This document shows positions 1 to 43,716 of a stretch of 43,716 bases of DNA, in pieces. Each line of letters opens with the position of its first letter. The first letter of the stretch is position 1. Source of the DNA: Reclinomonas americana ATCC 50394 (taxonomy: Eukaryota); NCBI GenBank assembly GCA_048213135.1, contig PS015530.1, positions 1-43,716 on the forward strand, given 5' to 3'. Position numbers and translations under genes: made by a program. The notes below the pieces were generated by a model, which did not search any database, had not been told where the DNA came from, and saw only the letters and a program-made list of their open reading frames with translations.

Positions 1-2563
1 GGTGTGGAGATTCTCACGTGGAGAGCGGGCAGGCCTCCGAGGATATCTTTCTGCCGACGAGAGCGAGATCAATGGTGACGGTGACGCACACCAACTTTCA
101 CGAGAGCGTGGCGCGTCTCTACAAGTTCTTTTTCCAGAACTTTACTCGAGATGCCGTGGATCGGGTGCGTACCCTGCATGCATCTCTATCAAGCAAGTCA
201 GCCGCTTTATGTGTTTCGTGTACTGACTGGTGTGTGTGACCAGGCGACCCCGATTGAGAACTACCAATGGATCATGCGCGCTGAGCGGATGCGTGCCGAA
301 TTGGAGCACACAGAGACTGTGGCCGCCTTTATGGATCTTGTGCAGAGCTATGGCGAGGTGCGTGCATGCTTGTTTGCCTTCCCACAATGCCAGTGACACC
401 GTTCGCTGACGGGGCAAGCATTATGGCAGGTATCGCTTCCGTTTCCGTGGGTCTCATTCCGCACCGGCCGGCAAGAGTCGCACCCTGCCTTTGTTGTCTC
501 TGAAGAGCAGGTGCGAGAGTGCATTTTGCTGTTTGTGTTCTCGCCGGTGCTGAAAATTTGGTCGTGTGCAGATTTTGAAGGATTTTGTGCGCGATTGCAT
601 AGTGCTGGACGGGCAAGTGTTTGGCAAGCACGCCATCATGCGCAGTCCGTCGGTCGCTGAGGGCAGCGAATTCAATCCGCCGACCGAGGGTCGTCGACGC
701 TCACGCTCGCGTGGCAGTGCGCCTGGCTCAATTTTGCGGGCCGGATCGTCGGCTTTCTCGCTGGATCGCTCCGGAAGCACGTTGTACACTGCCGGTCCGC
801 AGACAGAACTTGACGAGCAGGGCGAGGGATCCGACTCTGTTGGCAGCCTGGACGATGAGCTGCTCGGCGAGCCGGGTGTGGTGAGCGTTTTCTCGCAGCA
901 CTGGACCACCAGCAATCTGATACTTCGTGTGAGGCGCCTGTTTTCGGTGCGCACATAATCTCCTGCGTTGTATCGTTGCACTCGTGTGGCTCATTGACGG
1001 TACCGCAGGCTCGCAAGCGAAAGCGCATCAATGCGGAAATGTCAAGACGACCGGAGCTGCCGCGTGCGCTGACCACGTCTGGCATGTTCACAGCCGAGTC
1101 GTACCGCCAAGCAGCAGCCTCGTCACGAACGCTTGAGGGTGTGTGCATTTTGTGCGGCACGGTGACATGTTCCTCTTGATGCTGATGCCTTGCTGGGCTG
1201 CAGTGAATCGAGCCACACTGGAAAGCTTTGTGGTCGAGTCGCAGCGGCCATCGGTGGCGCAGCAGCTGCAAAGGCTACACCAGCTGACACCTGCCAAGAG
1301 TTCTCACTCGAGAGCTGGCAAGAGCGGCGGTGATTCGTCGTCGCCGTGGAAGTCACCTCGTCTGGAGAACGGGGCCGACACGAAGGCATCTGGGCCAGCA
1401 TTAGGTGCGATGCTGATCATGATACGCTCGGGTGAGGGCTCGCAACTGGGTGATGCGTGACTTTTTCCTTCTCGTGTTCCTTCCGATGTTTCTCTCCGCC
1501 TGTGTCACTCTCACTCTGCCATATATATATATATGTGTGTGTGGGGTGACAACATCGTGGCACATCTGAGTTTCTGCAAGAGTATTCACGATCATCGTAC
1601 TCACTGGATATCTCTCTGCGTGTGTCAGTGGTTGAACTCGACAAGCGAATGAGCATGTCGTTGCCAGCTGCCGCTGGTATGTCGGGTTCGTTCCGGAATC
1701 TTTCCTCGTCGCACAGATTTTACTGTTGCTGTCACTTTGCTCATTGCATTGTCATGCTGTGCAGCGCATGCTGAGCAGTTGCGCAACCGTGCAGCATCGT
1801 CACGAAGCATGGCTCTCGGTCCGGCGGAGCAGCCATCGCCACAAGATCCACTACTCAGCCAGAGGGTTTGTTGTTGCTGTCTGCGTGCTGGTGGTGTGCG
1901 CTGCACGCATTTCGTTGTCGCCCACGTACAGTCGCGCGCCCCAAATAGAAACTGCTGACGCGCCACTTGGTCGACGACCCGCTCATCTCGGGACTCGGGA
2001 ATCCGCAGAGTCGGCGTGCAGATGGTCATTTGGGAGTTGCGTTGCGCGTCGCACGTGCACACTCGCGCATTCACCTTCTCATTCCACTCATTCTCACGAA
2101 AACAATATGGCAGGCGGAACTGGCAATGCTGAATAGCTACGGCATCGACAGCAGTAGCCCGACGTTGATGTTTCCAGACTTGCTGGTGGCCACTGTCGAA
2201 CTCAAGCGCAAGCTCAAGGCCCGAATCGAGGCGCCCATTTTCAGCGAAGAGAGTGAGCACGAGGCATTCCGCGAGGCGCAACTGCTGCGCGACGCATTGC
2301 GAGTTGCGTACGCTTGTGGATTCACGCGAAGATACTCAGCGCACTCACATTTCTTCTTCTGCCCACCACAGGACTCTATCATGGCGCACGTCCCGGAGGC
2401 ACAAACCATGACGCAGGCCTCGACATTGACGTATCAGGCTCTTCAGCAGTTTACGCGTACGTCGGCCGGCGGTGACTGCCTGGAAACAGTGCAGTACATT
2501 TTCCCGCCGGACCCGCGGTGGGTGTACCCGCAGGACACACAGCAAGTGCTGCCGATCGTGATT
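1..2563 (+). CDS. Hypothetical multi-exon protein, partial at both ends (runs off the window start and into the N gap at 2564)
   Basis: Exons join in frame across GT-AG introns (e.g. ...RDAVDR|ATPIENYQW..., ILKDFVRDCIVLDGQ, KLLTRHLVDDP, LQQFTRTSAGGDCLETVQYIF). Codon usage looks like the host genes. No family recognised. Confidence 0.7.
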
Positions 2564-2625
2564 NNNNNNNNNNNNNNNNNNNNGTAGCTATTTCACTCTT
2601 TATTGCGAGGGAGAGAGGAGGAAGC

Positions 2626-5192
2626 ATGTCTTTTGTGCAACACCTCGGCGAGATCTATACCACGCTTGCCGCACGTTTCGGTATGCGTTTCTCCGTCGCG
2701 CCTGTGCTGAGTCTCTGTGTGTGTGTGTGTGTGCCCACCTCCTTTGTTGCACAACAAAGGTTCCGATGTGATCGACACGGCCTTGTTCTACACGTCATTC
2801 TCGCTCTTCGCCGCCACCATCAGCAGCATTCGTCGCGTGCAGGCCGTCAAGTTCTACTTGTTGTTTGGTGAGAACGAATGTGCGCATCTTGGCCTTCTCC
2901 CAACATCTCACTCTCTCACTCTCATTCTCTCCAGTGGTGGTGGTGTGTGCGGTGCTTGAGGTGCTGGTGGGTGCACTGCTGCCCTCCGCGCATGTGACCA
3001 CTGCGCAGTATGACTTGGTGTCGACCATTCGCAAGGCATGCCAATCACGCTCTTCTCTCTCTCACTCACAGTGTGGCGACGACTCACTCTGTGCGTGCAC
3101 GCACAGTCGTCCTCCGGCTTCCTCCTCATGGTGTGGCTGTTTGCACTCATGTTCCCCAAGGATCTGGAGGGCGACGAGAAGAAGGGCGGAGCAGGGCATG
3201 CATTGGCCGAGGCATCTTCCGGTGGCGATCCGGCACACGTGATGAATCAACGTCGCATGCCACTCGGCCTGCGTGGCGAGGAGGTACATGGAGAGCTGCC
3301 GGCGGGCTCGCTGCTTGCGCAGCTGAAAGTGGCGCCGCGCACGGAAGTGCAGGGTTGGTCACATGCGAGACTGCTCTCATATTGTCGACTGTGCGTGTTG
3401 ACCTGTGCCGGCGGCAGGCAACGACGAGTCGTCGGAGGTGCATGCGCGACTGACTCGGGCAGCGGAGAGTGCGCACTTGGAGCTGTGCTCGGATGAGTTT
3501 GCGGCGCACATGGACGCCAACGACGAGCTGGCGCAGTACCGCGATCAGTTCTTTATGCCACAGGCTCCCGACGGCAGTGGTTGGTCACTTCTCCTCGTGC
3601 TGCTTCTTTTGCATCACCACCCTTACGTTCTTGTCGCTTCTCGCAGACGCCTGCTACTTGTGTGGCCACTCGCTGGGCCTGCAGGCCCGTGGCACGGAGG
3701 AGTCGGTGCTGCAAGACATTCGCAAGTGGCAGCGTGTGGGAGTGCGGTCAGTTGTCGTCGTCGTGTCCGTGCGCCCCTGGTGTTGATTGATACTCACACG
3801 GGCACAGTGGGCACTTTGAAGCGCCGCGACCGTGGTTCCTCATTGAGGACGAGGTGCAGGAACCGATGGCCAACTTGGTCGGCGCCAAGCCGAGTGAGGT
3901 ATCACGCCGTCTGGCTGCTGCAAAAAGCTGTTGCACACACACGACACTCACTTCACCCTGTCATTGTAGGTCGTGGTGATGAATTCGCTGACGGTGAATG
4001 TGCACCTGCTGTTGGTGTCGTTTTACCGGCCCTCGGAGAGTCGCTTCCGCATTCTGATCGAGTACCACTCGTTCCCCTCCGACATGATTGCCTTCCGCAC
4101 GCACGTTCACTCGTGGGGACTCGATCCCGACGAGGTGCTCATTCAGGTGGCCCCGCGCGATGGTGAAGACTCGATCCGCACCAGCGACATTCTGTCGATT
4201 TTGGAGCAGCACGGTCACGAGATCGCACTGGTGATGCTGTCGGGCCTGCAGTTCCGCACCGGTCAGCTGTTCGAGATTCCAGTGTTGCGTCGATGGGGCC
4301 AGCCAGAGTGTTAGAAATGTCCCCTCCCGGTTCGCCTCATCTCTCTCTTTTTTTTGTGTGTGTGTTGCGCGCAGCATCACCGAGGCTGCTCACCTGGTTG
4401 GTGCGCGAGTTGGCTGGGATCTGGCGCACGCAGTCGGCAACGTGCCGCTGAAGCTGCACGAGTGGAACGTTGACTGCGCCTGCTGGTGCACCTACAAGTA
4501 CCTGTGCGGTGGTCCCGGAAACCTCTCCGGCGTCTTTGTGCACGAGCGCTTTGCCAACGAGCCCGATCTGCCGCGCTACGCCGGTTGGTGGGGCAACCGA
4601 CGTGAGACGCGCTTCCATGTGGTGAACGAGTTCGATCCGGCGCCGGGTGCTGCCGGTTGGCAGCTGAGCAATCCGATCGTGCTCGGCATCAGTGCCCTGA
4701 TCCCACCACTGCGCCTCTACAACGAGGCGGGCATGGAGCGACTGCGTGCAAAGAGCCTCTTGCTCACGGCCTACATGGAGATGCGGCTGCAGCGCGAGTT
4801 GGACGGCAAGGTATGTGTGGGGGGAGAGACAAGTTGGCAGAGACGGGTGCATGCGTGTGCTCATAGGGGTCTTCGACGTTGCGCGCACAGATCCACATCA
4901 TTACCCCGCGCGACCCCGCGCAGCGCGGCTGCCAGTTGTCGATTCAGATTCGTGGCAAGTTCAACGGTAAGAAACTGTCGGCCAAGCAGATCGAGGTTTG
5001 TGTGCACTGCACGTGTGTAGGTAGGAGGCGATCAACCACCTCATGTGCCTGCGCCAGGAAATCATGGTGGCCGACGGATTCGTGGTCGACAAACGCGACC
5101 CCGACATTCTGCGCCTGGCTCCCAAGCCACTCTACAACTCGTTCTCGGATGTGTCGCGACTGGTGAAATACCTGAAGTCGCACTTGCAGTGA
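2626..5192 (+). CDS. KYNU: Kynureninase (PLP-dependent), apparently with an N-terminal three-TM extension resembling the GEX1/Brambleberry C-terminus
   Basis: Spliced product contains YLCGHSLGLQ, EVVVMNSLTVNVHLLLVSFYRP, GWDLAHAVGNVPLKLHEWNVDCACWCTYKYLCGGPG, GWWG, GWQLSNP, ITPRDPAQRGCQLS and LRLAPKPLYNSFSDV; stop TGA 5190-5192. The kynureninase domain starts ~3420. The link to ATG 2626 depends on a GC-AG intron at 3036-3106. Confidence 0.92.
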
Positions 5193-5312
5193 CGGGCGGG
5201 AGTATGCAACGGGTGACGTGAAAATAGAAATGAAGACAAGAAAGAGAAATACGATGCATTGTCTTCAGCGATCCTCCGCCCACCACGTGCATCACAGGCT
5301 GCGGCGGCCGCA

Positions 5313-6246
5313 TCACAACACGCTGATGAGGTCCTCGATTTCACGCTTCTGCTGCAGCAAGCGTGCCCTTGCTGACAGCTGTGTTGGAGGTGCACCTCCG
5401 GCGGCTTCCTCACTGGCGCCGCTGCCCTCACCCGCCGGTGGCGGTGGTGGTGGTGGTGGCGGAGGTNNNNNNNNNNNNNNNNNNNNGGAGGCGGGAGAAA
5501 GGAAACGATGGAGGACACGCACCTCTTTTCGTATTCGTTCTCGATAAACTTGACCACGATGCGCGCATGCCTGGCCACGTCGACATTCTGCAACAACGAT
5601 GCCAGACTGGTGATAATGTGCTCCTCCATCTCGCGAATGGACTCCTTCTTGGCCTTGGCGCTCTTCATGAGGGCGGCACACAGCGTGCCGAGACCCTTGA
5701 TGTCGACGAATCGCGCGCAATTCTTCTCGTTGTTGAGCAGAGCGTGGTCGAGAGCCTTGAGGGCGCCCGGCCGAGTGTGCTTTTTCTGAATGAGCAGTAC
5801 CATGAGCTCGAGGCCTTCCACGCGCCGGAAAAAGTCCTTGTTCTCGTTCTCGACCAGTGCGTAGCACAGGCAATCAAAGAGGTTCTCCATCAGTTCCTGC
5901 TCCTCTGACGTGTTGGCCGGGCGGCGCTTGAACGGCTGCATTCACACACCACTCAGCCATCACGCAGCGACTGGCACGGCAAAGCGGAGCAGCAGACGCA
6001 ACTACGAGAGCTTTCAGCAGCTCCTCCACTCCATTGATCTTGCCGAGCTCCTTGCGGATGTGCGGGTCGCTCATGAGAAAGATGGAGAGGATCTCGCTGG
6101 CGTACAGCTTATTGGCGTCGAACTTGCGCGTCTTGATGCGATGCACCAAGTACGGCAGGATCGGCGTCTTGCGCACCGCGTCCACGGCGGTCGTCGGCAC
6201 CAGCTCCGTGAGGTGCTCCAGAATGCCAAGCACATTGTGCAACGCG
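5313..6246 (-). CDS. CTNNBL1: Beta-catenin-like protein 1 (Prp19/CDC5L complex), partial; interrupted by gaps
   Basis: FDANKLYASEILSIFL, KRRPANTSEEQELMENLFDCLC, EGLELMVLLI, ALKALDHAL, FVDIKGLGTL, EMEEHIITSLASLL, KFIENEYEK. C-terminal QKREIEDLISVL* lies beyond the 20-N gap. Confidence 0.92.
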
Positions 6247-6311
6247 NNNNNNNNNNNNNNNNNNNNAGCCGCGCGCCCTTGAGCGCCTGCGCAGTGAATG
6301 AGTCCACGTCC

Positions 6312-7304: not shown

Positions 7305-7338
7305 TGGTGGATGATAAACGAAGTGTGAGATACATGAT

Positions 7339-11113: not shown

Positions 11114-11905
11114 ATGAATCAGGTGCGTCTCTGTGAGTGTGTAAGAGTGACTTCTCTCTTTGGCTTAATGTGTGTTGCACAGGTGTTCCTGTCTGCAGAG
11201 GAGCTGGTTCGAGCACGAGAAGCCTTCAATCGCTTTGATCGAGTTACGCGCGCTCACTCCCTCTCTCTCTCTCTGTGTGTGCACACTCTCTGACACACAC
11301 AGACACACACACAGAATGGCGACGGGCACATTGAGACGTGGGAGCTCAAGGCCGCCTTTCAAGGTACTCACATCACTCTCTGTGCATTCATTCACTCGAT
11401 GTCAGACACTGACTCTGTGTCTGTCACTCAGATATGGGGCAAGAACCCAGTGACGAGGAGCTGTTTGCAATGATGGCCGATGTCGACCAAGACACGAATG
11501 GAACGATCGAGTATGGCGAGTTTGTGCGACTCATTGAGAAGCAAAAGGCGGCACACATGAACTACAAGCCCGATCTCGACACTTGTTGCGTGCACCCCTC
11601 ACTCTCTCACCTTCCTCTCCTTTAACTCACTCTCTGGCCTTTTGCTCACTCAGTGGAGGCATTCGTGGCATTGGGAGGCAACAAGGACAAGACAGGGCAG
11701 TTGGATGCAGGCAAGCTGACGGACCTGGTGCGGGAACTCGGCTTGACTGTCGACATTGAGAAGCTGGTGGCGGAGGCCGACACTGATGGCAGTGGATTCG
11801 TGGACTTTGATGGTGGGTTAGGGGGGACGCCATCGTCTTTCTGTGTGTGTCGCTCACTCGCTCTCGATTGCAGAGTTTGCCGAAATGATGAGGGACGACT
11901 TGTGA
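11114..11905 (+). CDS. Calmodulin-like EF-hand protein, homolog of flagellar outer-arm dynein 18 kDa light chain LC4
   Basis: Six exons: AREAFNRFDRNGDGHIETWELKAAFQDMGQEPSDEELFAMMADVDQDTNGTIEYGEF...DTLEAFVALGGNKDKTG...LTVDIEKLVAEADTDGSGFVDFDEF. 'DTLxAFVALGGN' is the LC4 signature as recalled. Confidence 0.85.
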
Positions 11906-12042: not shown

Positions 12043-13289
12043 TCATGGCTGTGCGGCATTGGCCTTCTTCAGCAGATACTTGCGCACGTAGGGTGTGTCG
12101 ATGCCGAGACGAGCCAGGGTGTCGACCGGCAGTGCGTACACCGGATCGATGGTCTTCAGCTGCTCGGGATAGTAGCCCATCAGCGACAGACCGGAGACGC
12201 CGAAAAACGTGTGGAACACATCGGGCATGTCGCCCGGCGCATCCGCGATTCCACCATCCTCCGCATCCTGGCAGCGCAAGATGAAGCCCTTGAGTGCCGG
12301 CTGACTGATCCAGTCCAGGCGATCGAGCATGGCCAGCGCCGACAGATCCCACCACGAGTAGCACACATCGGCCTTCTTCTCGGGTCTGCCGTTCAGGCCG
12401 CCCGAGTCGGCCAGCTGTCGCTCAGCGAGCCACCATCCCAACAGATCCGAGTCCACCTGGTCAAGCGCTCCCGCAATCGCCAGCACACCCACACACGTGA
12501 AGACTGCGCACGAAACTCGCGGTGAGAAACGTATCACACTCACGAGGGCGCCGTCATCGCAACTCTGTCCTCCGTGACTCTCCGCGCCCGGAATGGCACC
12601 AAAGCCGCCATCAAAGTTGCGGCACTTCTTGATAAAGTCGACGGCCAGCGGCACGTTGACGACGTCGAGTCTCCGCAACAGCGACAGCGCATTGAGTGCA
12701 CAGTACGAGAATCGCGTGTCCACCTCGCCGTACTTGTCGCCACAAAAGGAGCCATCGGCCTGCTGCAGACTGGCAATGAAGCGCACCACAGGCTCACCTC
12801 GCTCAGGGAGATCCTGCGCTGCTGTGTAAGAGGCAGAGGCAGAGGCAGAGAGAGAGAGACTGCAGTGAGGCCGCAACATCGGGCAATGCACACCCGGCCA
12901 ATGCCATCAATTGAATCGCCGATAATGTGTACAGCAGATGCCCATCGTGTCCCTCGTTGCCTCCAAACGCCCCTGTTCTCTCGTCGTAGCAGCGCATGCA
13001 AAAGGCGAGCACATCGGGACGTTCCCGCTCCGCATCAAAGTCTCCCAGCAGGTCCGCTGCAGTCAGTCCCCAATATGCTCCCGAGATGCGCAGGTGCTCA
13101 CTGACAAAGTACATGAAGTTGTCGCGTTGCTGCACGTGTGTGAGTGTGAGAGTGAGCATGCCGAGAACACACACACACACGTGCGCACACAGAGACATGC
13201 GTGTGTGGGGAGGAGACCTTGTCGAGTTCGCGAATGTAGTGCACATGCTTGTCGCGCAAGAACTCGGGCTCTCCCTCCGCTTGCGACAT
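12043..13289 (-). CDS. RABGGTB: Rab geranylgeranyltransferase (type II) beta subunit
   Basis: [97 protein letters not shown]; three introns. Confidence 0.96.
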
Positions 13290-26300: not shown

Positions 26301-27228
26301 CCCCGAGGAGCAGCGTCGTGCCATTCGTCACAAGGTCGCCGCGCAATTCTACCCGAAGGGATCGGCACCACTGACGCTGCCGACCAAGAAGAGCGTCGCT
26401 GCCTCTGCGTCTCATGCGAGTTGCGTGGCATTCGTTCGCGCATGCTTTCTGTTCCTCCGTGTTTTTGCTCATCATCCCCCTCCTCCTGGCAGGTGCTGAA
26501 CCGGAGACTGCGCCGATTCGACCAGAGTGGCTCGCCGCGTGCCGCGTGGAGAACACCTCGGTGGTGTTCACCTTTGCCTGCGATGTGGTGCTCGACCATT
26601 TGCTGGTGACCACGCCGGGCGACGGCCGCGGTCCCACTGCGTATAGCCTCTTTGCGGCGCCGTCTACCGACACGCCGTTGCGTCATTGCTTTCTTGAACT
26701 CATAGAATGCAAGTTTCCAGTGCGTGCTCAACTCTTTTTCGTCATGCAGCGAGCGTCTGTATGCGGCCTTTGGACAGGGTCGCCTGATCGATGCCAGCGC
26801 TCAGCAAAAAGTCGCACTCAGCAAGAGCGCTCGTCACACTGCGTGCCGCGTGCTGCGCTGCGAGTTCGAGTCGCCTGGCTCCGATGTTTCTGGCTTCCAG
26901 GTTTGTGGTCGCGCAGCATGTCTCTCGAGTGGTTGAGTGCGCTCTTGGTGCTCATGCGACTGCGCCAGATTCTCGACATCAAGTTGTTCGGCCAGCTTCC
27001 AACAGCCGACTCAAAACGCATCACGGCCGCTCCCGCACGCTCACCATCGGCCAGTGCGCTGAGTGCTGGTGGCAGCAGCAATGGTGCCGGATACAGTTTC
27101 GTTTCTCTCCTTCTTCATCCTCTACCCCCTCAGGCACAAAAACTCACGCCCTCACAGTAGGAGCCGATGTCGAGTCGTCGCCGTATGCCTTTGACGACGG
27201 ACCCTACGGACCGGGCCACGTGCTGTGA
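23393..27228 (+). CDS. Rho-family-like degenerate GTPase domain fused to three Fn3_assoc/chitobiase-C-like domains and a C-terminal domain of unknown type
   Basis: FKVTILGDEHSGKL, LEMWLPECTADFDDVRPMYYPATDIFLLVFS, VPVILIG, ILKYIEI. Then YLYTIDGKEPTRVSPRYTGPI, IFYTLDGSKPTMQSPQY and IRFTLDGSVPTVDSKLYTGPV. Ends GPGHVL*. Confidence 0.8.
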
Positions 27229-27490: not shown

Positions 27491-29899
27491 TTACGCAAAG
27501 GCGCCCTGCGCGAACGACACGGCCTTGGCCAGGCCCTCGTCAATCTTGGCCAGCTCGGCACCGCCGCCCTGGCCGCGATCGGGCTTGCCGCCACCGCGTC
27601 CGCCACCCACAGACAGCGTCTCGCGCGCCCAGTCACTGGCCTTCAGCTTGTCCGTAAGGCTCTTGGTGACGCCGCACACCACCGTGTACCTGTTGGTCTC
27701 CTCGTCCCGTGACAAGAGCAGCAGAGCACCAGCACCACCCAACGCCTGCTCCACTGGCGCAATGGCGCGATCAAAGAGTCGGCTGTCGACCTCAAAGTCA
27801 ATCACATCGACCACGAACTTGCGGCCAGCCTGCGCATAACAGGGAAGGGAAATGTCAGCAGACAACAAAAAAGAGAAGTGCTGGCGAAAGCAGACGCAAC
27901 AGCGTGCGCCTCCTGAGCCAGTCCGCTCATTCTTGACACGAGGCGCTCGCGCAGCTCGGCGATGCGCTCGCGATCCTCGGCCTTCACACTGCGAATACAG
28001 ACAGGGAAGTTCAGATACGGTTCTACAACCACCACAAATAAGGCAGCCTGCTCATTCACTCACCGAGCCAGCACCTCGTCCACAGCCGCCTGAATGTCGG
28101 GCTTGCGGTACAGAGGCACGCCAAGCGTGGCAAACGCCTGCTGAATGGCACGCAGCTGGAGAAGAGGACACGCACGTGGTCAGCCACCGTCAAATCACTC
28201 ACGTGAAAACACAAACACACACACCTCCTCCTTGAGGTTGCGGCCAGACAGGTCACGGGTGCGCTGCACGCGGTCCAGGAAGGCGTCGGCAGTGGCGTGT
28301 GACTCGCGAGCAGCGTTACCGGTGCAGGCGACCATGCGGCGAATGCCCTTGGAGATCGAGCTCTCGGAGAGAATGACAAAGTCGCCAGCCTCTCGGAAGT
28401 TTGACAAGTGAGTGCCACCGCACAACTCGACACTGCGCGCACAAAAGATCAATCTCTTTGTCAGAACAAGCCGCGCAGCAAACAGTTATGCAAGTGGGGA
28501 GAGAATAAAATGCAAACCTGTAGCCCAGCCACCTCGGGTTGGCCGGATCCGCCAGCAACTCATCAACAGACGGGCCCACAGACACGACACGCACTGGGTC
28601 GGGGTACTGCTCGTCAAACATGCGGCGAATGCCGGCAATCTCATAAGCCTTCTCCAGTGACACCAGCTTGGAGTCCACAGGCAACTGCGGCACACGCATT
28701 CTTCAGCANNNNNNNNNNNNNNNNNNNNNNNNNNNNNNNNNNNNNNNNNNNNNNNNNNNNNNNNNNNNNNNNNNNNNNNNNNNNNNNNNNNNNNNNNNNN
28801 NNNNNNNNNNNNNNNNNNNNNNNNNNNNNNNNNNNNNNNNNNNNNNNNNNNNNNNNNNNNNNNNNNNNNNNNNNNNNNNNNNNNNNNNNNNNNNNNNNNN
28901 NNNNNNNNNNNNNNNNNNNNNNNNNNNNNNNNNNNNNNNNNNNNNNNNNNNNNNNNNNNNNNNNNNNNNNNNNNNNNNNNNNNNNNNNNNNNNNNNNNNN
29001 NNNNNNNNNNNNNNNNNNNNNNNNNNNNNNNNNNNNNNNNNNNNNNNNNNNNNNNNNNNNNNNNNNNNNNNNNNNNNNNNNNNNNNNNNNNNNNNNNNNN
29101 NNNNNNNNNNNNNNNNNNNNNNNNNNNNNNNNNNNNNNNNNNNNNNNNNNNNNNNNNNNNNNNNNNNNNNNNNNNNNNNNNNNNNNNNNNNNNNNNNNNN
29201 NNNNNNNNNNAACGTCGACCAGGAACTCCCAGGCCCAGTCAATGGCCTCGCGCTTGAAATAGTCGCCGAATGACCTGTGGGCGGAACGGAATGAGAACAT
29301 GCGAGACAGAAGTCTCTCCTTCTCCACTGTACACACACACACCAGTTGCCGAGCATCTCGAACTGGCTCAAGTGCGATCCGTTGTCCCTGCCCACATCCT
29401 CCAAATCGTTGTGCTTGCCGCCGGCACGGATGCACTTTTGCGAGTTGACAGCGCGCTTGAGGCGCGACATCTCACTGCGCGGATCGGCAAGTCCCAAGAA
29501 AATGGCCTTGAACTGCGTGTGGGGGAGGGGGGAGCGAAAATGTGAGCCACTGCCTCAGCTGACAAGATCCCGACAAAGAGTCCCGAAACTTGGTTCATGC
29601 CGGCATTTGCGAACAGCAGAGTCGGGTCTTCGTGTGGCACCACGGACGACGACGGCCAGAAGACATGCTCTAAAGCACAGAGTGAGTCGCAATAGGCAAA
29701 CAACGCAAACTGCACTTTTTCTGGGTCCTCAAACAGGAACCCAGTGACATGAAAACGGACAACTCAAGTTGCCACACTGCTGCGCTGCGGATTCTCTCCT
29801 CATCCTAGCTCTCTTTCTCGCTCGCCTGCCACTCACCCTTCTTCTCGACGAAAAAGTCGATGAACGCCTGACGAATCTGCGCACCAGTGACGGGACGTT
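27491..29899 (-). CDS. AARS: Alanyl-tRNA synthetase, eukaryotic type; middle in the N gap, first exon unresolved
   Basis: [109 protein letters not shown]. Confidence 0.95.
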
Positions 29900-32968: not shown

Positions 32969-35411
32969 TTATATTTGTGAGGACGGAAGGTGCAGATCGT
33001 GTGCGCCTGCCGGTGTCACTGTGGTTCTTCGCTTGGCGGGTGCGCCTGCGAGGCGTGGACTGCCGATCGGACCCTTGGTGAGGGTCGCCATGGAGATCTC
33101 GGAGCGCGTGTCGTCGTCGTTGTCGTCGATCGAGTCGTCGGCCAGGCTCTTGTCGCGCGTCTCCACCGGCAACAGTAGCGAGATGGTGGCCGCGACAATG
33201 GCTAGACTGCCGTACGCCACCAGCGGTCGCCACCGCGACCAGTACTGGCAGTGCACGAGCAGCATTTGTGCAACATACGGCGACGCGATGCCACCGATAC
33301 GGCCGGCGGCGGAGCAGGAGCCCATGGAGATGCCACGCAGCGTGGTCGGATACACCTCTGGTGTGTAGACGTAGAGCGCCAGGAAGCTGGCACTCGCAAA
33401 ACCTCGTGCAAAGAACAAGAGCGTGGTCTCGGCCCAGGGCGGCAAGTGGGGGTTGCACAGCAGGCCGACGCTGATGACCAGACCAAACATCTGCAACGCG
33501 AGGCGGATGAGACAACGCGGTAAAGTGGGGAGACGGCATCAGAGAGGGAGTCACAGATGGTCGCACCGTGCCACTTAGCGTGCCCTGCGTCACGAATCAG
33601 TGTGAGTTTCTGCAGGAGGACGTCACAACTTCTCTTTTGCATACCTTGCGACCAATGCTGTTGATCAACACCAGAACGACAATAATCGCGGGTAGTTCGG
33701 CAGCTGCAGTGAGGAAACCGCGTCAGCTACGCTGTGTATGCACACACAACCAACACAGCACGACGACAGTGTACCAGACGAGATAAACACATTCAAAAAA
33801 TCGTCGCGATCAAACTGGTGCGCACAGTTGTGCGACATGCTGGCACAGTCGGCGTGTCGCAGCAACGGCAGCTCCGTGCTAATGAGCACCACGCCTGCGC
33901 AAAAAAAAATGAGCGATACGCTGGCGACAGAGTCGGCACCCAACAAAGCTTGACGCACCATAGTACAACGCCACATTGGCCGTCCACAGGAACCACAGCG
34001 GAATGGTACTCCAGCGATACTTTGGTCGGAACAGCTCGACAAAGGAGCCGCGCTCGGCCATGGCCGAGGCATGCACCACCAGCTCACCACGCGGCAGCTG
34101 CATGCGGTTGACGCGCGCAAGCCGCTCGAGTTGCGCACGTGCCTTGTCAATCTTGTTGGACACCACGTAGAAGCGCGGGCTCTCCGGCAGCAACGGGAAC
34201 AGAAGAATGAGGACCAGCGATGGTACTGCATCACGTCATGAGGTCACTCGGCAGGAACGCACTGACGGCGACCGGGCACGCAACTGGAGGCGGCCACCAA
34301 CAAGCCTCGCCAGCCCCACTTCGGGATGATGCCCCAGGCGAGGCCAGCCAACAACAGCGAACCTGCACACCGACCACGTCAATAAACATACGCCCCCCTC
34401 TGCGAATGGAGGTCGCCAGGTACGCACCAATGGCCCAAAACACGTCAAACGACGCCAAAATGCTGGCCCGTCTCTTCGTCGGCAAGTACTCGGCCACCAG
34501 CGAATAGATCACGAATCCACCTGGCGACGGCACCGTCAGTCACGTAGACACCTTGCGATCACAACGAACACTGAGGCTGACACACCGGAGACACCGACGC
34601 CGACCATCGCTCGTGTCACCAGCAACACGACATACGATGGACTGAAGGAGCTCGCCAGCCCAAACACGCCCACCAAGACCGTCGACGCAAGGAATCCGAT
34701 ACGCCTACGACACAAGACAGCAATGTGAGAGGCACGCCACAGTCAAGCAGGCGAGCAAGACACACACACCGCCCATATCTGTGCATGACAATTAGCGACT
34801 GATATCATCGAAAGAGAAGAGGTGCAGCAACGCAACTTGTCGGCGAGAACACCCCACAACGGTGCACCGACGAGCATGCCTCCAAACACGCACGACGTCA
34901 GCAGCGCCTGTGTCGCTGTGGACGTGAGCAAACGATCGACAACAACTGAGCTGAGAACCAAGACCTCACCGTCTGCCAACTCTGCAAATCAAACTGACAC
35001 CTCGCTTGCTCCTACGCACACACAAAAAGAGAAAGCGGTGAGTGCAACGCAGCAGTGACGCAACACATCCACGAGAGAGACAGAGACAAAAAAACGCAAC
35101 ACTAAGAAACGACAACAACAAGATCTCCATGGCCTCCGCCGCAAACGCAAAGCCCGTCAGCACGCCCAACCAAAAGTGGAAACGCCCCAGCCCAATATGA
35201 TCAATCGCCTACACACACACATGAGCAAGCAAGCAAGCACCAGCAAGCAAGCAAGCAAACAACAAACCTGATCGCACGTGTACACTGTGTCATCTCCACC
35301 ATCATCGCCATCGCCTAGCAACAATCGCGCGGTGTCATCTGCATCATCATCGTCGTTGCCTATGCGTACATCGTCGGCAGCCGATGCCAGTAGTCGCTCA
35401 TCAACGCTCAT
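32969..35411 (-). CDS. MFS transporter, SV2/SVOP-like
   Basis: GFAFAAEAMEILLLSFL, GMLVGAPLWGVLADKYGRR, AEYLPTKRRA, LPESPRF, LYVYTPEVYPTTLRGISMG, GRIGGIASP, LPVETR. Confidence 0.92.
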
Positions 35412-35553: not shown

Positions 35554-38500
35554 ATGGTGGTGCGTTGTGTTGAGCATGTGTGTGCACGAGTGTGTGTGTG
35601 ATTGCTTATACCGTCAGGCAGCGTCTGGTGCCACCGAGTCGCTGGTGAGAGAGTTTGCGCAGCTGCAGGTCGACCATGAGTTGCGTCTGATCGGCGTGTC
35701 ACTCTCTTGTAAAAGTGATGCTGATGATGATGTGTGTATGTGTGTGAAGACTGCTCTCGCGTGTGGTCGATGCACCGCAGCACAAGCCGCTGCCGCCGCT
35801 GCCGTCGTCGGATACGCGATGTGCGTGCCTGTCTTTTCTTGCTGCCTTTGCTTCTTCTTCTTCTTCTTCTCTGAGCGACAACGCAGCATTGCCGGTGGGA
35901 TGGCGATTGACCGTGTACCCGGATGGATCGTCGTATCGCGGGCAGCTCTCTCGCAACGGCCTGTACAATGGTGAGGGTGTGTTTGAGTGGGTGGCGCCAC
36001 TGCGCTCGTATCGTGGACAGGTGTGTGTGTGTGTCTCGCATTCTGTGTCAGGAGCACATCGACTCAGGCGGTGTCGTCATCAGTGGTCTGGTGGCGTGAT
36101 TCACGGTCAGGGGACGTACGTGTGGCACGAGAGCAATACCATGTACGAGGGCGAGTGGGTGCGTGGCAAGATGCACGGCGAGGGTACGATGTACTTTGCG
36201 AATGGCGAAATCTATCGCGGGCGCTGGGAGGATGGAGTGATTCAGGGTCGCGGTGAGTGTGCTCGTTTGTTGTTGGTGTAGAAGTGAACGCTTTGTCACT
36301 CACCGCATGTGTACAGGTGTGTTTGTGTACTCGAATGGTGTGTTCTCTGGTCAGTTTGCGTCGGGACTGCGTCACGGGCACGGCGAAATGAGGTGGCGCG
36401 ATACCAACCTCGGTGTTCACGTGGGCCAGTGGTACATGGACAAGATGCACGGGTTTGCCGATCGCCACCATCACGAATCCTTCGCGTCGATGAGTCTCAC
36501 GGCCAGTCCGTTGCAGGGAGGGCAAGCACTACTTTGCGAACGGCGACGTGCTCAGTGGTCGGTGGGCTGCGGGCGAGCCGACAGGAACCATGGTGCTGAC
36601 GTCACCCAACGGCGTCAGGTGTGAGCCTTCCTGCGTGCACCCTGTCCATATTGTGGAGTGTGTGAGTACTGAATGTGGTGCAGATACGAAGGCGGCTGGA
36701 GTGCCGGCAGACGTCATGGAGTGTTGCGTTCCTCCACCAACTTCCATGTTAGCGCGCTGGCCCTGACGTCTCTCACGCACACACAGTGGCACACTCACGG
36801 TCCCTGGTCGGTCGCAATTGAGTGGCCAGTTTGTCAATGGTCAGGTGCACGGCACGGCCACCGAGGAGATCTTGAATGTGGAACGATACATTGGAGCCTT
36901 CAACACCGGACGTCGACACGGAGCAGGAACGCTGCTCAATCTGGTCACTGGCGTCGAGAGGCCAGTCGTGTACGACAATGGTGTTCTGGTTGGTGGCCAG
37001 GCGGTTGCTCCTCAACCTCAACTCGTCTGTGAGTGCGAGTTCGTCAAATTGCTCTGCGCACATGGAAGTGCAAGCTCATGCCACGTTTGTGCAGTCCATG
37101 CTGGTCGAGGTGACCTTGGCGGCGCGACTCTTGAAATGTCGATTGAGCACCTGGTCGAGGAGGCGGCGCTGAACGCCGGATGGCCGCAAGGAAAACCAGT
37201 GCAAGATACATTGCGTATCCTCCAGGAGCACGTTGAGTGGCGTTTCTTATGCATGCGTGTTTGATGAGCTGTCGTCTCACCCCTCCTGTGGAACTCAGTT
37301 CATCTTCAACATGTCGGGCCTGCTCGAGAACTGGTCGCATCTCTCCTCGATAGGCCTGAAGAAACCGCAGATTCGTGCCCTCTACAAGTATGTGAGTTGC
37401 ACAGCGGCCCCGGAAGGTGAGAATCTGCCTCTCTCTCTCTCTTTCTCTCGCTTTGCTGTTGGTTGAACGACGGCTTGCATTTGGCAGTGCTGACGCGCTA
37501 CTCGATTCGCGATGTGAGCGACAGCACGGACGATGCCGCGCCAGCACAGTCCGCTGTCACAACGACGACGAGCACAACTGCCGCCACAGCGCCAGCTGCC
37601 CCGGCAGCACCAGCGGCCGCCGCGGCAGCAGCGCCATCTGAGATGGGAAAGGAAGACATTGTGGCGCACTTCCGTTGTCCCATTACCCACGAATTTATGA
37701 GGGATCCGGTGCGTGCACGATGTGAATCTGTATGTGTGTCTGTGTGGACCCTGCCTTACAGTCGAAACGCGACGGTGCATGCAGGTCATTGCGGCCGACG
37801 GACAGACGTACGAGAGTTGAGTTCGAGAAAGTCGCCTCCTCTTTACCTGCGTTCTCCGTCTCATTTGCGTGTGTTGATGAATAGAGATGGCCATCGAGGG
37901 GCACTTCCGTCGCTCAAATCGATCGCCGCTCACCGGCGCCGAGTTGCCAAACAAGACACTTATCCCGAACTTCTCCCTGCGAAGTCTGATTCAACAGTGG
38001 ATCGAGAAGTACGGCGGTATGTCTGCACAACGCGCGCATGTTATTCGGTTGTTGTTTTGTGCTGATGATCGTGCAGATGATGACGGCGAGCTGGGTGCTG
38101 ATGCCGGCGACAAAGGAGGAGCAGCGGGAAAACCGGCAACAACCGAAAAGGTCCCAGCAGCCACGGCGCCCACTGCTGCTGCAGACAAGAAAGCTCCCTC
38201 TGGCGCTGTCGAAGGCAGTGCCGCAGGCAAGCCAGCTGCTCCTACCGACAACAAGGCTGCTGCGGCGAGCAACAGTGGTGCCAACAAGGGAGCTGCGTCG
38301 GCTGCTCCGACGGAAAAGAACTCGGCGGCAAAGCAGCCTCCTGCCGCCTCTGAGCAATCGGTTGTATCCGGCGGCGGTCGCGCCTCGGAGAAACAGACGC
38401 AGCATGCNNNNNNNNNNNNNNNNNNNNNNNNNNNNNNNNNNNNNNNNNNNNNNNNNNNNNNNNNNNNNNNNNNNNNNNNNNNNNNNNNNNNNNNNNNNNN

Positions 38501-38924: not shown

Positions 38925-39012
38925 GTGAAGTATGCGCATGCATGCCTCAATGCCGTTCGTATTTTTCACTCAGCACGCACACGCATTTCCCTGTGCGCAA
39001 TCCGAGCGCAGC

Positions 39013-42000
39013 CTAACATTCCCACAACACGCTGAGCGCCTTGGCACACTTGACGCGCACTTTCGAGTCATTCTCTCGCAGCAGCGAGATGAGCGACGAG
39101 CACACATGCTCCAGGTTCACACGCCGCTTGGCCTCCTCGCTCAGATTGTAGAGCAGGTAGGCGGCCAGGATGGCGGCATTGGAGCGGATCTGGTTCCACG
39201 ACGATCGGAAGAAGCTCACCAGGCTCATGAGCAACAGATTCAGCTGCGTGACGTCAAAGAACTCCACCAGCTCGCGCGCCACATTCACTGAGTCGGCGAC
39301 CGCAAATGTGAGTAAAACTGCACGGCCGCCTGCACACACTAACAATTCTCACCCATGAACTCGTCATAGTCGAGAAGAATGTCGGGATCGAATGCCTTGG
39401 TGTTGAATCGATCAACCAGCGTCTGTGATCCCATCAGCGGCACCAGGTGGCGAATGGCAAGCTTGGCCGCCTGCACTCACGATGACAATCATCAGACCCC
39501 CCCGTTCGCCATCGCAGCCGGCACACTGTCGCACTCTCGCAACGCAACTCCTCGAACTTCACGGACTTCGTCGTTGGCGTGCACCAACAGCGCCGGCAGC
39601 GCCAAGTTCAACTGTTCCATGAACGGATCGTTGCCGGCACCAAAGTTGTGCAAAACGCCAAACAGCGTAAAGGCGTTGGCGCGCACCTTGTCGTTGCGCT
39701 GAGCACAGTTGCGCGTCAGTATCACACATGGTGGTTGGCCACACAAATTTTTGCACCGCACGCAACGTTCTCAAAGGCCGGCTTGAGGCGCAAGCACACA
39801 TTGACCAACACTGGTCCCGCGTGCCGCTCCTCGACATTGTCGAAGATCTTGGCCAGTGCATCGAGCGACTCGAGCACCAACTCGTCGTGCTCACTCTCAA
39901 TAAAGCCCATCAGCGCCGAGATCACCGGGGTGGCGTATCGATTGACCTCCTCGGTGGGTGCTGAGGCGAGGTTGCCGCTGCCGCGCACGGCACGCATGCG
40001 CACCAGTTTCGACTCGTCGCCCATGCGTGCAAGCATGGCATTGATAGCGTTGTGCAGGAGCTCGGCGTGGTTCTCAATGTGCAGGATGATCTCGCCAATG
40101 ATGTTGGTGGCCGCCAGACGGTGGCCCTCCTCCGGTCGCTTCGTGTACGGATTTACAAACGCGTACACCTCCGACACGAATCGCAGCAGGCCCGACGCCT
40201 CCTCCTCCGCAAGCACGCTCTCGCAAACCAAACTGCGCGCGTGAACACACAAAAGTCAACACACACGACGACTCTATCAATACACACAGTCACACCTCCC
40301 ACAAAACACACCTCAAAATCTTTCCCGACCCATCAAGGTACTTCTCCCACTCGACCAGGTCTTCGAAGAGCTTTTGCTCGTTCGCCTTCTCCATCACCTT
40401 CTCCTCGTCGAGCGCCACCAAAATCGTCTTCACCAGCTCGCACGCGTCCGTCGCAATCGTCTTGTCCTTGCACATGTGTGCAATTCCCAGATGCAACAGG
40501 GCAGTGCACAGCAGTGGCACACGCATCGACACAATCACCTCGTTGGCCTCCTCCAGCTCACAAATGGCGCCGAGAGATGTCGTTGCAGTCAGAGGCGCGA
40601 GAATGGGATAGATTTGGCCCGAGAAGTCGCGCTCGGTCAGCTCCGTAGCCACACACACACCGGCGGTGGTGGCTCCGTAGGAGCCAGACGTCTCTTGTCG
40701 TTTCTGCAAACGCGCTTTTTCAGTCAACAAAGAACACACACACATCACCGACAACAGCGAGCAGCTGACCTTGGCTTCGGCAGAGGGCACGTGGCGGAAG
40801 TCCTCAAACATTTGTGTGTTATTCATAATGTCGATGAGGTGCGACACCAGATGCCGTTGCAATGTGGGGTCACCAGCCAGCACCTGGATCGCCTTGGTGA
40901 CGTGCCTGTGCCACAAAGCCCTGGATAAGTCACAGGACAAAGTATGAGGAAAAAACATGGAGGCCACCCTGAGACGCAACGCGGCTTGCGGCCTGCGGAA
41001 TGACAAGATGGCATCGGCCACCGCCTGGATGTGGTGGCGCGCCAAGGCACGCACCGCATGCAGCACACCGTTCACCTGCGCAGTACAAGCGTGTGAGTGC
41101 ACCTCCCAAGCAAATAATAAACATGCAGCAGCAGATGCACACCGTTTGCTCTCGATCCTTCAAGTTTGGCAACACATTGACCAAGGCCGTGATGAACGTG
41201 AACACATCGTCGCGCAGTTCGCCACCACGGATTCGCAGAATGCCTGCACACGACGTAAGCACACACATACACACTCGTCTGTCTGCGACGACGCCACACC
41301 GTTGACAAGAACACACACGCCGTTGGCCACATCGACTTCGTTGTCTTCGAGGCTGGCCATTAGCGAGTCGATCATGGGTCGCAGTTGAGCCTCGGGTGTC
41401 TGCCAACGGCGCCGCCATCTTGTGAGTACACAACAAGAAATAAATCACATGCATCGTCAGTGACGAACCATCTCGCCGACGACATTGGCCACCTCCTTTG
41501 CAATCGTGAACAACTCACGCGAGTCCTCAACATCCATGCTATTCCTGTGAGCCAGCAAGAGAGAGCACAGTGTCAGCACACGAACATAAAATCTCGATCA
41601 CGGAGAGAAAGAAAAGTGACGAAACTTGAGTGTCTGAATCGTCACGAGAGCGCGAGGCAGTGGCACTCCGGGGCCCTCACGCAGGTAATGATTGATGCGG
41701 TAGAGCAAGTACAGCGCGTCGGCAGCGGCCGTGCGCACATTCATGTCGGGGTCCGTGCAGCGGGCACTGAACAGACCAATGTGCGAACCGAGACCGTCGG
41801 TGAAGCACGCTGACATCTCGGTCATCGCGCCCTCGCCATCGGCGGTACGCACACCGGCCGAGTACTTGGCGAACGCCTTCAGGCAGAACACGGCAGCCTC
41901 GACAGCACGTTGACGCACATGTGCGATTGGCTTGCGCACAGAGTCGGCCAGCCATCGCAGCATCACGTGCAGTGTCTGCGTGACACCCTCAGCGGAGCGG

Positions 42001-43716
42001 ATCACCAGCTCGCCGAGCAAAATATTCCAAGCGTCCAACAGCTTCTTGGCGGCGTCATCGCCAGCGGCCGCCAGCACCTCGGGTGGCAACTCGGCGTAGC
42101 CCACCACACCGTCGAAGGTGTCCTTCAAGGCACCCACATCCCATCGCGGATCGAGGCGGCTGTGACGACACACGCACACTCTTGTTGGCGACACACACGC
42201 AGATGAAGGAGACGACAGGGAGGGCTGACGCAACATGAGAGTGGCGAGTGCAGAGAGACCTGCGATGCGTAGCCGCGTAGTCTCCGGATCGCGCTCCTGG
42301 CGGCGCTCTTTCGGGTTCATCATCGCGAGGAGCATCTGCACAATCTCCACGCGGCGCTTCAGCGGAACAAAATTCGCCCCCTGCAAGTGCGAGATGAGCG
42401 CATGCAAAAATGAACGGGACGACTCGGGCGAGCACGCAACGAGACGCTCCATGTGCATGGCCGCTGCTACGAGCTCCACGCCAATAAAGCCCGCCTCCTT
42501 TTGCACGACGGTGGCCTTGGGTTCGGAGATCAGCGGCAACAGCTTCTCCACAATGTGCACGTCCACACGTGAGATGAGCATCCTAACACACGCGTCAGTT
42601 GGACATGCGGGGAGAAAAGAGCATCATCGCCAGCACGCTGCGCAACTGTGGCGGCAGGAACTGCGCAATCTGACCGAGACTCAATAGGATCAGCGCCTTC
42701 AGCGCATCCGACGGACCCACGGCCGACCTGTGGCACCAAAATCGTCAGCGTCGAACACCGCCAACGCAACGGTACGAGTGGACGCAACTTGAACTTGGAG
42801 AAGAAGCCAGTGCTCTGCGGCTTGATTGGTGTCAGCGACTGCCGAAGCTGCTCAAACGCGAAATCCATGTAGGTCACAGAGGCGAGACCAAAGCCCAATG
42901 CCACGCCTGCGCAGCACACACACACAATACGCAAGCGTGAGCAGCGCTGCAAATACAGACAGAAGACCGACAGGTGCAGACCTTCGCGCTCGGGTGCCGA
43001 GGTGTGGTCAGCCAACTCAATCATCTGACCCAATGTCTGTTGCACAGCCAGGCGCTTCTTGCACTGCTGCATCACTGCGCCCATGACGCGGAAACCGAAT
43101 CGCTGCATGCACAGGAGGGATGAGGCGCTCACTCTCACCAGCTCTGACGCGCGGAGTACACACCTTGAGTGAGTGGCCATCGTGGACCGTGTCGTACCCG
43201 GCAATGACCTCGCACATGGCGTCGAGCAGCGATGCTGACCATTCGTCGTCGGCCATGGCGCGGATGGTGTCGAATACAAACTCGTCGATGCGGCTCTCCC
43301 ACTGCTCATTGTCGAACGCCTCGTCTTCCAGGGCTGTGTTGACGAGAAATCAACGACCGACATCTCGTGGCGAGCGCGAGCACAAAACAACACCGCACCA
43401 CTATCCAAAAAGCTGATCAGGTCTGGGATCACCGAATCCCAAATGTCGGCCACGGCCGGGTGCAGCACTGGTCCGACGGCGCGCAGCGTGTTGAGCGCGT
43501 GGACGACCACCTTCTCTGGTCGCTTCGGGGATGCCAGCTCAAACTGTCAAATCGCACACACATATGTCCAGTGAGGATAACAGTAATCACAGAACGGAGC
43601 GGAAGGAGGTCACACAAACCAGCAGGCGCGCCATGATGCGCTGCGGCTTTGGCAGATTCACTGTTGTCCGACACAGTGAGCAGCAACGCGCAGCTCCGCG
43701 TCATGTGCGCGAAGAG
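39013..43716 (-). CDS. MROH1: Maestro HEAT-like repeat protein (MROH1/HEATR7A-like), 5' partial
   Basis: NLPKPQRIMARLL, LHPAVADIWDSVIP, EREGVALGFGLAS, ARCTDPDMNVRTAA, YATPVISALM, LRLKPAFEN, FFRSSWNQIRSNAA, VRVKCAKALS; about 20 short introns. Confidence 0.85.

Follow-up and report, generated by a model that had tools for sequence, protein, structure and literature searches.

A one-base-shifted class of GTTGCGT 5' splice sites, tied to the last exon base, in a 43.7-kb window of the Reclinomonas americana genome

Background

Recognition of intron starts by U1 small nuclear RNA (snRNA) is usually taught as taking place in one register, with rare exceptions in human. Roca and Krainer are said to have described such human 5' splice sites of shifted register in 2009. 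Whether a shifted register may also be in routine use is the question raised by a stretch of 43,716 nucleotides (nt) from the eukaryote Reclinomonas americana ATCC 50394 (NCBI GenBank assembly GCA_048213135.1, contig PS015530.1, positions 1 to 43,716 of the forward strand; hereafter the window), in which many short introns begin with GTTGCGT. Relative to ordinary 5' splice sites (donors) such as GTGCGT, an extra T moves the consensus of these sites one base further into the intron. An earlier note on this DNA, made from the sequence alone, had listed 42 donors of this kind, all after exons ending in a base other than G, and had proposed that the first base of the intron (+1 G) stands in for the missing G at the last exon position (-1) in pairing with U1. 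We report here that, as judged from the sequence, the GTTGCGT sites are genuine 5' splice sites in heavy use, that the introns which they begin are ordinary ones of U2 type (GT-AG), and that they account for roughly one in three introns of the window.

Results

Frequency of the motif and its link to the last exon base

The hexamer GTTGCG is present in 66 copies on both strands of the window and the heptamer GTTGCGT in 37, compared with 11.78 +/- 3.49 copies of the heptamer in 100 dinucleotide-preserving shuffles, none of which reached 37 (maximum 22); within the window, the motif thus exceeds what composition would give. As many as 28 of the 37 copies are donors in our gene models, none lies in the sense strand of an exon, one is antisense to an exon, four fall within modelled introns and four are unassigned, while GTGCGT serves as a donor in 14 of its 81 copies and GTTGTG in none of 38.

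The gene models were obtained with a custom Viterbi gene finder that combined an acceptor matrix with a codon model self-trained on Pfam-confirmed exons. It was run with two donor settings, i.e. one accepting any GT (the donor-blind run) and one scoring a two-component mixture on positions +3 to +9 only (the mixture run), and exon bases were never used in the choice of a donor in either of them. The mixture run yielded 100 introns, 85 of which are no longer than 130 nt. Because the models err, the counts given here refer to these short introns only, and hand corrections were kept apart: the mixture run overlooks micro-exons and one RabGGTB exon and gets some long introns wrong, the donor-blind run places the donors at 6002 and 20546 3 nt off and merges some introns, and a run with a length penalty altered 11 of the 100 introns.

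Unsupervised expectation maximization on positions +3 to +9 separated a TGCGT component from a G[T/C]GT component, the share of the former rising from 27% in the donor-blind round to 39% after iteration. We refer to donors with G at +5 as class A, and to those of the form GTT[GTA][CA]G as class B. Among the 85 short introns of the mixture run, 48 are of class A, 32 (38%) of class B and five unclassed; the earlier estimate of roughly a quarter was therefore right in calling the shifted donors abundant, and if anything low (27% was the value of the first round only). The last exon base is G before 37 of the 48 class A donors, before a single class B donor (at 18616) and before one of the five unclassed ones, and the difference between the two classes is highly significant (Fisher p=9.4e-12). 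The association is equally seen in the donor-blind run, where G precedes 25 of 31 class A donors and none of 14 class B donors (Fisher p=2.3e-7) among 60 short introns, 15 more donors being unclassed, mostly through misplacement. Within the window, the link that the earlier note had drawn between T at +3 with G at +6 and a last exon base other than G is thus found with both settings. Given how bases are distributed over the codon positions of the modelled genes, 10.1 class B donors would be expected to follow G, and only one does (binomial 8.6e-5). Viewed from the exon, 31 of the 42 ends other than G take the shifted form.

Class B is much stricter than class A. Each of its 32 donors has T at +3, C at +5 and G at +6, positions which are partly set by the class definition, and 28 have T at +7; the GCGT block is found in 26 of the 32 class B donors but in only 12 of the 48 class A donors (p=9e-7). 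In 25 of the 32 cases, the reading frame would be broken if the class B intron were retained.

Position of the cut

Eleven class B junctions can be placed exactly and independently of the donor motif, nine of them by comparison with homologues or solved structures and two with internal repeats. The RabGGTB junction at 12563 (ESHGGQ/IFTCVG, where the slash marks the junction) aligns without a gap to 13 homologues. Three junctions of a cellulase gene of glycoside hydrolase family 9 (GH9) align without a gap to the same 11 bacterial-type GH9-CBM3c proteins, i.e. 21765 (DHSY/W, against DHAW/W in these proteins), 20546 (SYV/DDRTNY) and, in the CBM3c part, 20023 (GNI/YF); of the nine ordinary GH9 junctions in this part of the alignment, most are without a gap as well, one exception being an uncertain modelled intron of 203 nt at 21204. 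The kynureninase exons flanking the donor at 4284 stop at residue 234 and resume at residue 236 of chain 3e9k_A, a single split codon lying between them, and the CTNNBL1 exons on either side of 6002 meet at residues 220/221 of chain 4hnm_A, whereby a GT three bases upstream is rejected. A gene for a transporter of the major facilitator superfamily (MFS) contributes three more. Its junction at 34284 (WRGLLVAAS/IPSLV) is gap-free against the 13 homologues among the matches listed, and the gaps of 14 and 3 residues which the model leaves after the donors at 35100 and 34836, relative to homologues, are filled exactly by two micro-exons missed by the gene finder, namely one of 42 nt at 34970-35011 on the minus strand (EQARCQFDLQSWQT) and one of 9 nt at 34770-34778 on the minus strand, which gives DK/YGR/R and restores the transporter-family motif DKYGRR (D-KYGRR in the homologues). 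Both micro-exons sit between one class B and one class A intron. The two remaining joins, at 25083 and 25515, belong to the gene located at 23.4-27.2 kb of the window and preserve the spacing of its internal repeats.

A cut one base later, giving introns that do not start with GT, was considered and rejected: it would swap a conserved residue at 12563, 21765, 20023 and 34284, and the cut therefore falls before the G at these four sites, as the earlier note had argued from conserved residues.

Other properties of the introns

Apart from the donor, the introns of the two classes are alike. Their median lengths are 66.5 nt (class A) and 68.5 nt (class B), and their composition is equal, pyrimidine content included; a CTNAY branch-like motif lies about 20 nt from the 3' end in 39 of 48 class A and 28 of 32 class B introns, and the acceptor is CAG in 43 of 48 and 31 of 32, respectively. 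A minor-spliceosome (U12-type) origin of class B was rejected on these grounds, as its donor is GTTGCGT rather than RTATCCTT, and its branch motif with the distance of the latter, its pyrimidine content and its acceptor are those of class A. The likeness to U12-type introns is limited to the existence of a second, far more stereotyped donor class next to a degenerate major one. Nor do the bodies of class B introns resemble one another more than class A bodies do, the mean local-alignment scores being 7.81 within class B, 7.58 within class A and 7.56 between the classes, and a family of introners was therefore rejected; the only similar pair in class B, 17228 and 17807, is located in duplicated exons.

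Composition around the cut and predicted pairing with U1

Aligned on their conserved block, the two classes read [A/T]G-G-TGCGT (class A) and [A/T]G-T-TGCGT (class B), i.e. they differ by one base, and the cut follows the GT. The composition at -1 of class B (A13 C7 G1 T11) does not differ from that at -2 of class A (A19 C9 G5 T15; chi-square p=0.68), whereas it differs strongly from that at -1 of class A (p=1.3e-9); likewise, -2 of class B matches -3 of class A (p=0.73). The match at -1 fits the prediction of a U1 register shifted by +1.

Pairing was modelled by folding each donor (-4 to +10) with an 11-base U1 5' end using duplexfold. The standard U1 5' end, which is assumed here and may not be that of the organism, gave a mean of -5.9 kcal/mol for class A, with 43 of 48 donors in the canonical register, and a mean of only -1.0 kcal/mol for class B, with 17 of 32 donors in the +1 register. 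The +1 register was predicted for 30 of the 32 class B donors with either of two ends carrying G at position 5 (AUACGUACCUG or AUACGCACCUG; G5-type ends), which are again assumed and may differ from the organism's own. When all 256 variants of U1 positions 3-6 were scanned, the standard end ranked 172 and ACGCAC-type ends came first, with -9.9 kcal/mol and the canonical register in 43 of 48 for class A, and -7.2 kcal/mol and the shifted register in 30 of 32 for class B. An ACGUAC end would bind class B at -5.37 and class A donors that lack the -1 G at -4.85; the corresponding values for an ACGCAC-type end are -7.20 and -6.98. As class B pairs poorly with the standard U1, its +5 C being mismatched, either the U1 5' end is changed or another factor reads the motif. 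A scan of the whole window at the Rfam gathering thresholds gave no match, and hence no snRNA gene within the window.

Catalogue of sites

The sites are collected in Table 1. All 18 plus-strand and 24 minus-strand sites of the earlier list do carry GTT, each preceded by A, C or T. Thirty of these 42 are donors of introns of at most 130 nt in the mixture model; three others (35100, 34836 and 16768) are model donors whose modelled acceptor is wrong (too distant), eight (2036, 11243, 15283, 29589, 36723, 37232, 37816 and 42646) are backed by hand inspection only, and 35680 was not assigned as a donor. There is no alternative in-phase GT at 11585, 15937, 26420 and 27900. Two class B-like donors 5 nt apart occur in a tandem GTTGCGTTGCG at 2036-2046 (plus strand) and again at 39538-39548 (minus strand), and these copies could permit alternative, frame-shifting donor use. 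The GTTGCGT at 22424, upstream of the GH9 start codon, is without an acceptor and probably not a donor.

Table 1. Shifted-type donors in the window (exon bases in lower case; the slash marks the junction)
Position	Strand	Donor	Intron (nt)	Gene or context	Basis
2036..2042	+	GTTGCGT		possible 5' untranslated region (UTR) intron upstream of ATG at 2126 (2036-2125)	hand inspection only, acceptor not fixed
2303..2309	+	cga/GTTGCGT	69		model donor
4284..4290	+	agt/GTTGCGT	91	kynureninase	model and structure 3e9k_A
5996..6002	-	gta/GTTGCGT	67	CTNNBL1	model and structure 4hnm_A
11243..11249	+	cga/GTTACGC (variant)	72	EF-hand gene	hand inspection; join ...FNRFDR/NGDGHIE..., presumably an EF-hand loop
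11585..11591	+	ctt/GTTGCGT	69		model donor
12557..12563	-	aga/GTTGCGA	60	RabGGTB	model and homologues
15283..15289	+	GTTGCGC	59	probable 5'UTR intron, ends a few bases before ATG (15283-15345)	hand inspection only
15727..15733	-	aat/GTTGCGT	68		model donor
15931..15937	-	att/GTTGCGT	63		model donor
16083..16089	-	gca/GTTGCGT	63		model donor
16762..16768	-	cga/GTTTCGT (variant)	probably 69		model 279-nt intron; 69-nt acceptor preserves frame (by hand)
16849..16855	-	GTTGCGT	40	doubtful (length equals model minimum)	model donor
17222..17228	-	cac/GTTGCGT	67	EGF-like repeat region, paralogous to 17807	model donor
17801..17807	-	cac/GTTGCGT	68		model donor
18610..18616	-	gtg/GTTGCGT		sole exception after G, ambiguous	model donor; in-phase GT 3 nt upstream
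20017..20023	-	ttt/GTTGCGT	66	GH9, CBM3c part	11 GH9 proteins
20540..20546	-	gtt/GTTGCGT	71	GH9	homologues
21759..21765	-	tac/GTTGCGT	63	GH9	11 homologues
23436..23442	+	cat/GTTGCGT	98		model donor
24527..24533	+	gca/GTTGCGA	74		model donor
25083..25089	+	gca/GTTGCGC	68		model and internal repeat, DGSKPTM/QSPQY against DGKEPTRVSPRY
25306..25312	+	aca/GTTGCGA	74		model donor
25515..25521	+	tct/GTTGCGT	72		model and internal repeat, join SKL/YTGP
26420..26426	+	cga/GTTGCGT	73		model donor
26677..26683	+	gcc/GTTGCGT	73		model donor
27096..27102	+	aca/GTTTCGT (variant)	62		model donor
27894..27900	-	gct/GTTGCGT	71	alanyl-tRNA synthetase (AlaRS)-like gene	model donor
29583..29589	-	caa/GTTTCGG (variant)	77		hand inspection; join presumably an AlaRS motif
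34278..34284	-	cca/GTTGCGT	59	MFS transporter	homologues
34830..34836	-	caa/GTTGCGT	58	followed by 9-nt micro-exon 34770-34778	DNA reading and homologues
35094..35100	-	agt/GTTGCGT	89	followed by 42-nt micro-exon 34970-35011	DNA reading and homologues
36723..36729	+	agt/GTTGCGT	64	MORN-repeat gene	hand inspection; join YEGGWSAGRRHG-V-GTLTV, which we take to be a MORN motif
37232..37238	+	cac/GTTGAGT (variant)	67		hand inspection only; frame-compatible
37816..37822	+	aga/GTTGAGT (variant)	69		hand inspection; join DGQTYE-K-MAIEGH, which we take to be U-box-like
39542..39548	-	gga/GTTGCGT	78	HEAT-repeat gene	model donor
39760..39766	-	aac/GTTGCGT	68		model donor
40974..40980	-	cgc/GTTGCGT	75		model donor
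41619..41625	-	caa/GTTTCGT (variant)	81		model donor
42228..42234	-	cat/GTTGCGT	75		model donor
42434..42440	-	ctc/GTTGCGT	60		model donor
42640..42646	-	aca/GTTGCGC	about 65		removal joins HEAT-repeat pieces in frame; model read through
42782..42788	-	caa/GTTGCGT	61		model donor

Gene content of the window

The window has a GC content of about 58%, eight runs of N and many short introns. Its long open frames give Pfam matches to kynureninase-like proteins, CTNNBL1, RabGGTB, a multi-domain GH9 cellulase, a Ras-like GTPase, an NAGPA-like protein and pieces of Maestro-type HEAT repeats. The RabGGTB exon is 70% identical to its best protein match and 71% identical, over a short piece, to the best metagenome locus. 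A further RabGGTB exon at about 13129-12894 (minus strand, within 12822-13217), which the mixture model skips, was placed by tblastn with homologues, and is followed by an ordinary donor, ggccgg/GTGTGC, at 12893.

The GH9 gene (15570-22357, minus strand) encodes a GH9 catalytic domain and a CBM3c-like module whose nearest relatives are bacterial enzymes (about 50% identity); beyond these parts it contains many cysteine-rich EGF-like repeats, and it is interrupted by more than 25 short introns. Judged from its sequence, it looks like a bacterial-type cellulase that has turned into a fully intron-laden eukaryotic gene. The HEAT-repeat model pieces at 43660-42595, 42581-41457 and 41375-39013 (minus strand) are probably one long Maestro-like gene, the former two joining in frame once the intron 42646-42582 is removed. 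A homologue search with the HEAT-repeat exons gave no match, which leaves the seven class B junctions of this gene without support from homology.

Third codon positions are only about 5% A in the seed exons, a very strong codon bias, and the introns are A-poor too (15-17%); this composition may be partly behind the use of GTG[C/T]GT rather than GTAAGT donors. (TG)n tracts are plentiful, and GTGTGT occurs 230 times on both strands, with many copies within introns and intergenic sequence.

Discussion

From the alignment of the two classes we infer how U1 might read them. On balance we lean towards a +1 shifted U1 register, with a G5-type U1 5' end, acting on ordinary U2-type introns. U1 would then pair identically with [A/U]-G-(G or U)-U-G-C-G-U in both classes. 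With G as the variable base, the GU at which the intron is cut would follow the last G of the exon, which gives the ordinary class; with U as the variable base, no GU would be available but the one lying one base upstream, the cut would move along with it, and the +1 G of the intron would pair opposite U1 C9 in place of the exon's last G, i.e. in the register shifted by +1. The base that ends the exon in class B would thereby be equivalent to the second-last exon base of class A, and since it stands as class A -2, it would be A, U or C and almost never G. As the shift would cost one pair (U at +2 opposite C8), the rest of the motif would have to be the strongest variant, GCGU. The U1 5' end would carry G at position 5, being ACGUAC or ACGCAC instead of ACUUAC; only with this G would the +4 C of the ordinary class and the invariant +5 C of the shifted class pair. 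That the lineage has indeed re-tuned its U1 5' end (G at position 5, perhaps C at position 6), has about a third of its introns in the +1 register, and has uncoupled U1 binding from the cut by one base genome-wide, is a more tentative idea, which we put forward as possible but unlikely to hold in all its parts. The replacement of the exonic -1 G by the intron's +1 G, as the earlier note proposed it, is thus supported by composition, by the shared 8-mer and by the folding register; as an account of the class it is incomplete, the standard U1 binding weakly and the +5 C being mismatched.

Several points weigh against this interpretation. The counts rest on a single 43.7-kb window and on imperfect gene models, in which micro-exons are missed, some long introns are wrong and five donors are unclassed. 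Every step that involves U1 is deduced from donor statistics, and the reasoning on the U1 5' end is circular, because the end that scores best is bound to be the complement of the donors on which it was chosen. The standard U1 is predicted to bind the shifted class hardly at all (-1.0 kcal/mol). Moreover, +4 C donors are reported to coexist with a standard U1 in Thecamonas and Mamiellales (preprint 10.1101/2022.06.08.495308), so that a changed U1 is plausible but not required. Among the 11 class A donors without the -1 G, GTGT and GCGT are equally frequent (three each), and the strictness of class B thus goes beyond simple compensation. According to the folding model, N/GUGCGU pairs about as well as N/GUUGCGU, so pairing energy alone leaves the preference for the shifted form at 31 of 42 exon ends unexplained. 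Finally, a G at the shifted -1 could still wobble with U10, and why it is almost missing there (1 of 32 donors, compared with 5 of 48 at -2 of class A) is only loosely explained.

Among other ways in which U1 could read the motif, an additional U1-like snRNA dedicated to these donors (5' end, for instance, ...ACGCAAC...) might pair with GUUGCGU canonically, so that two U1 species would serve the two classes. Class B does look as if it were read by full complementarity, being nearly invariant at seven positions and stricter than class A, and it pairs very weakly with the standard U1; in the scan of 256 variants, AUCGCAACCUG would bind it canonically in 31 of 32 cases (-8.68). Variant U1s are documented (PMC3561869, PMC10870369) and exist in humans, and standard and modified U1s are reported together in Physarum (preprint 10.1101/2022.06.08.495308). 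However, such an snRNA would need about five changes in the conserved U1 5' end, its C at position 9 would favour a -1 G that is found in 1 of 32 donors, the agreement of B(-1) with A(-2), and that of B(-2) with A(-3), would be coincidence, and the introns of both classes are otherwise identical; we hold it to be rather unlikely. A bulge would do without a second U1: G at +1 and U at +2 would pair normally, the extra U (at +3 or +2) would bulge out, and GCGU would pair with U1 positions 6 to 3. The intron part of class B is indeed that of class A plus one U, and a '+2/+3 bulge' register has been validated in human cells, where 68 sites are predicted to use it (PMC4856993). Yet the -1 base would still face U1 C9, which favours G, contrary to the single G among 32 where coding composition predicts 10.1, and duplexfold takes the shifted helix with an internal mismatch in 30 of 32 donors with G5-type ends; a bulge therefore seems improbable to us.

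The motif may instead be read mainly after U1, at the transfer to U6, U5 and Prp8 or by a protein, as a local form of the split between exon-anchored (AG//GU) and intron-anchored (//GURAG) donors. Loss of the -1 G is accompanied by a strict intron motif here too, and U1 pairing energy leaves the preference for the shifted form unexplained. Against this, at most two pairs are evident between GUUGCGU and the universal ACAGAGA box of U6, and no candidate protein is known. Two major donor classes, in which the -1 G and intron positions trade off through U5 loop 1 and the U6 ACAGA box, have been described (PMC11732430), but the extra base lies outside this published scheme, and we give the idea little credence. 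That the shifted class consists of recently spread introners, each bringing its own donor, would explain its stereotyped donor and high copy number; it is made very improbable by intron bodies that are no more similar within class B than within class A or between the classes, the only similar pair lying in duplicated exons, and by lengths and signals that match class A. An effect of chance or of faulty gene models is hardly credible: home-made models do contain errors, but none of 100 shuffles reached the observed number of copies, the donor-blind models show the same -1 association, and eleven junctions were verified independently of the donor motif.

If read in the +1 register, class B has its closest counterpart in human donors. 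A shifted U1 register has been established in human cells for rare donors (PMC4856993, PMC9311317), and as described there (PMC4856993), these share with class B an extra pyrimidine after GU, a consensus one base deeper, a last exon base other than G, the +1 G opposite U1 C9, and cleavage that stays at GU. They differ in being rare, in having an AAGU-type block and in being proven with suppressor U1s, whereas class B accounts for about one in three introns of the window, has a nearly invariant GCGU block and is known from sequence. Co-evolution of U1 and donors is reported for Amoebozoa, with a U1 of ACGUAC and GUGCGC donors in Mastigamoeba, and ACAAAC and GUUUGU in Entamoeba (preprint 10.1101/2022.06.08.495308). 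These donors likewise have C or U at +4, pairable by a G5 U1, and it is this position that our scan of U1 variants singles out; the difference is that those lineages are reported with one donor consensus rather than two registers, and that U1 is here deduced from the donors. The exon- and intron-anchored classes (PMC11732430) resemble ours in having a strict intron part without the -1 G and a relaxed one with it, but they are described there in one register, while here the intron-anchored class has an extra base.

Strict GTGCG(T/C) donors are reported for Mamiellales (Irimia & Roy 2008, PMC2483917), together with a CTGAC-like branch motif, short introns and a GC-rich genome, all of which recall the G/GTGCGT-type donors and introns of the window. 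Five GC-rich metagenome contigs contain GTGCGT 13 to 26 times and GTTGCGT 0 to 3 times per 10-21 kb, against 37 copies of GTTGCGT in the 43.7 kb of the window, and the GTGCGT habit alone thus does not bring the shifted class with it. These five are near-identical stretches (17-21 kb) of large marine contigs with a GC content of 59%, which encode an intron-split relative of RabGGTB and probably come from a picoeukaryote.

What would be new here is the use of the known shifted register for a major, rule-bound donor class. No lineage with such a donor code, in agreement with the earlier note, was found among the best-ranked literature matches for the motif (a noisy search), the shifted register and U1 co-evolution, a search that was not aimed at the organism's own literature.

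Conclusions

In this genome, about a third of all exon ends will be misplaced by gene finders that were trained on only one donor matrix, as happened in our own donor-blind and one-matrix runs. If the shifted-register reading is true, the lineage would probably be another case of co-evolution between U1 and its donor sites, and the shifted register, known in human from rare exceptions, would serve routinely as a second code that goes with the last exon base. The choice of the cleavage site would then follow the GU rather than the U1 helix, and would do so at scale. With dozens to thousands of natural cases of the hand-over from U1 to U6 and U5, the introns of this organism would form a large natural test set on which to learn how the cleavage site is fixed by the spliceosome once U1 has departed.

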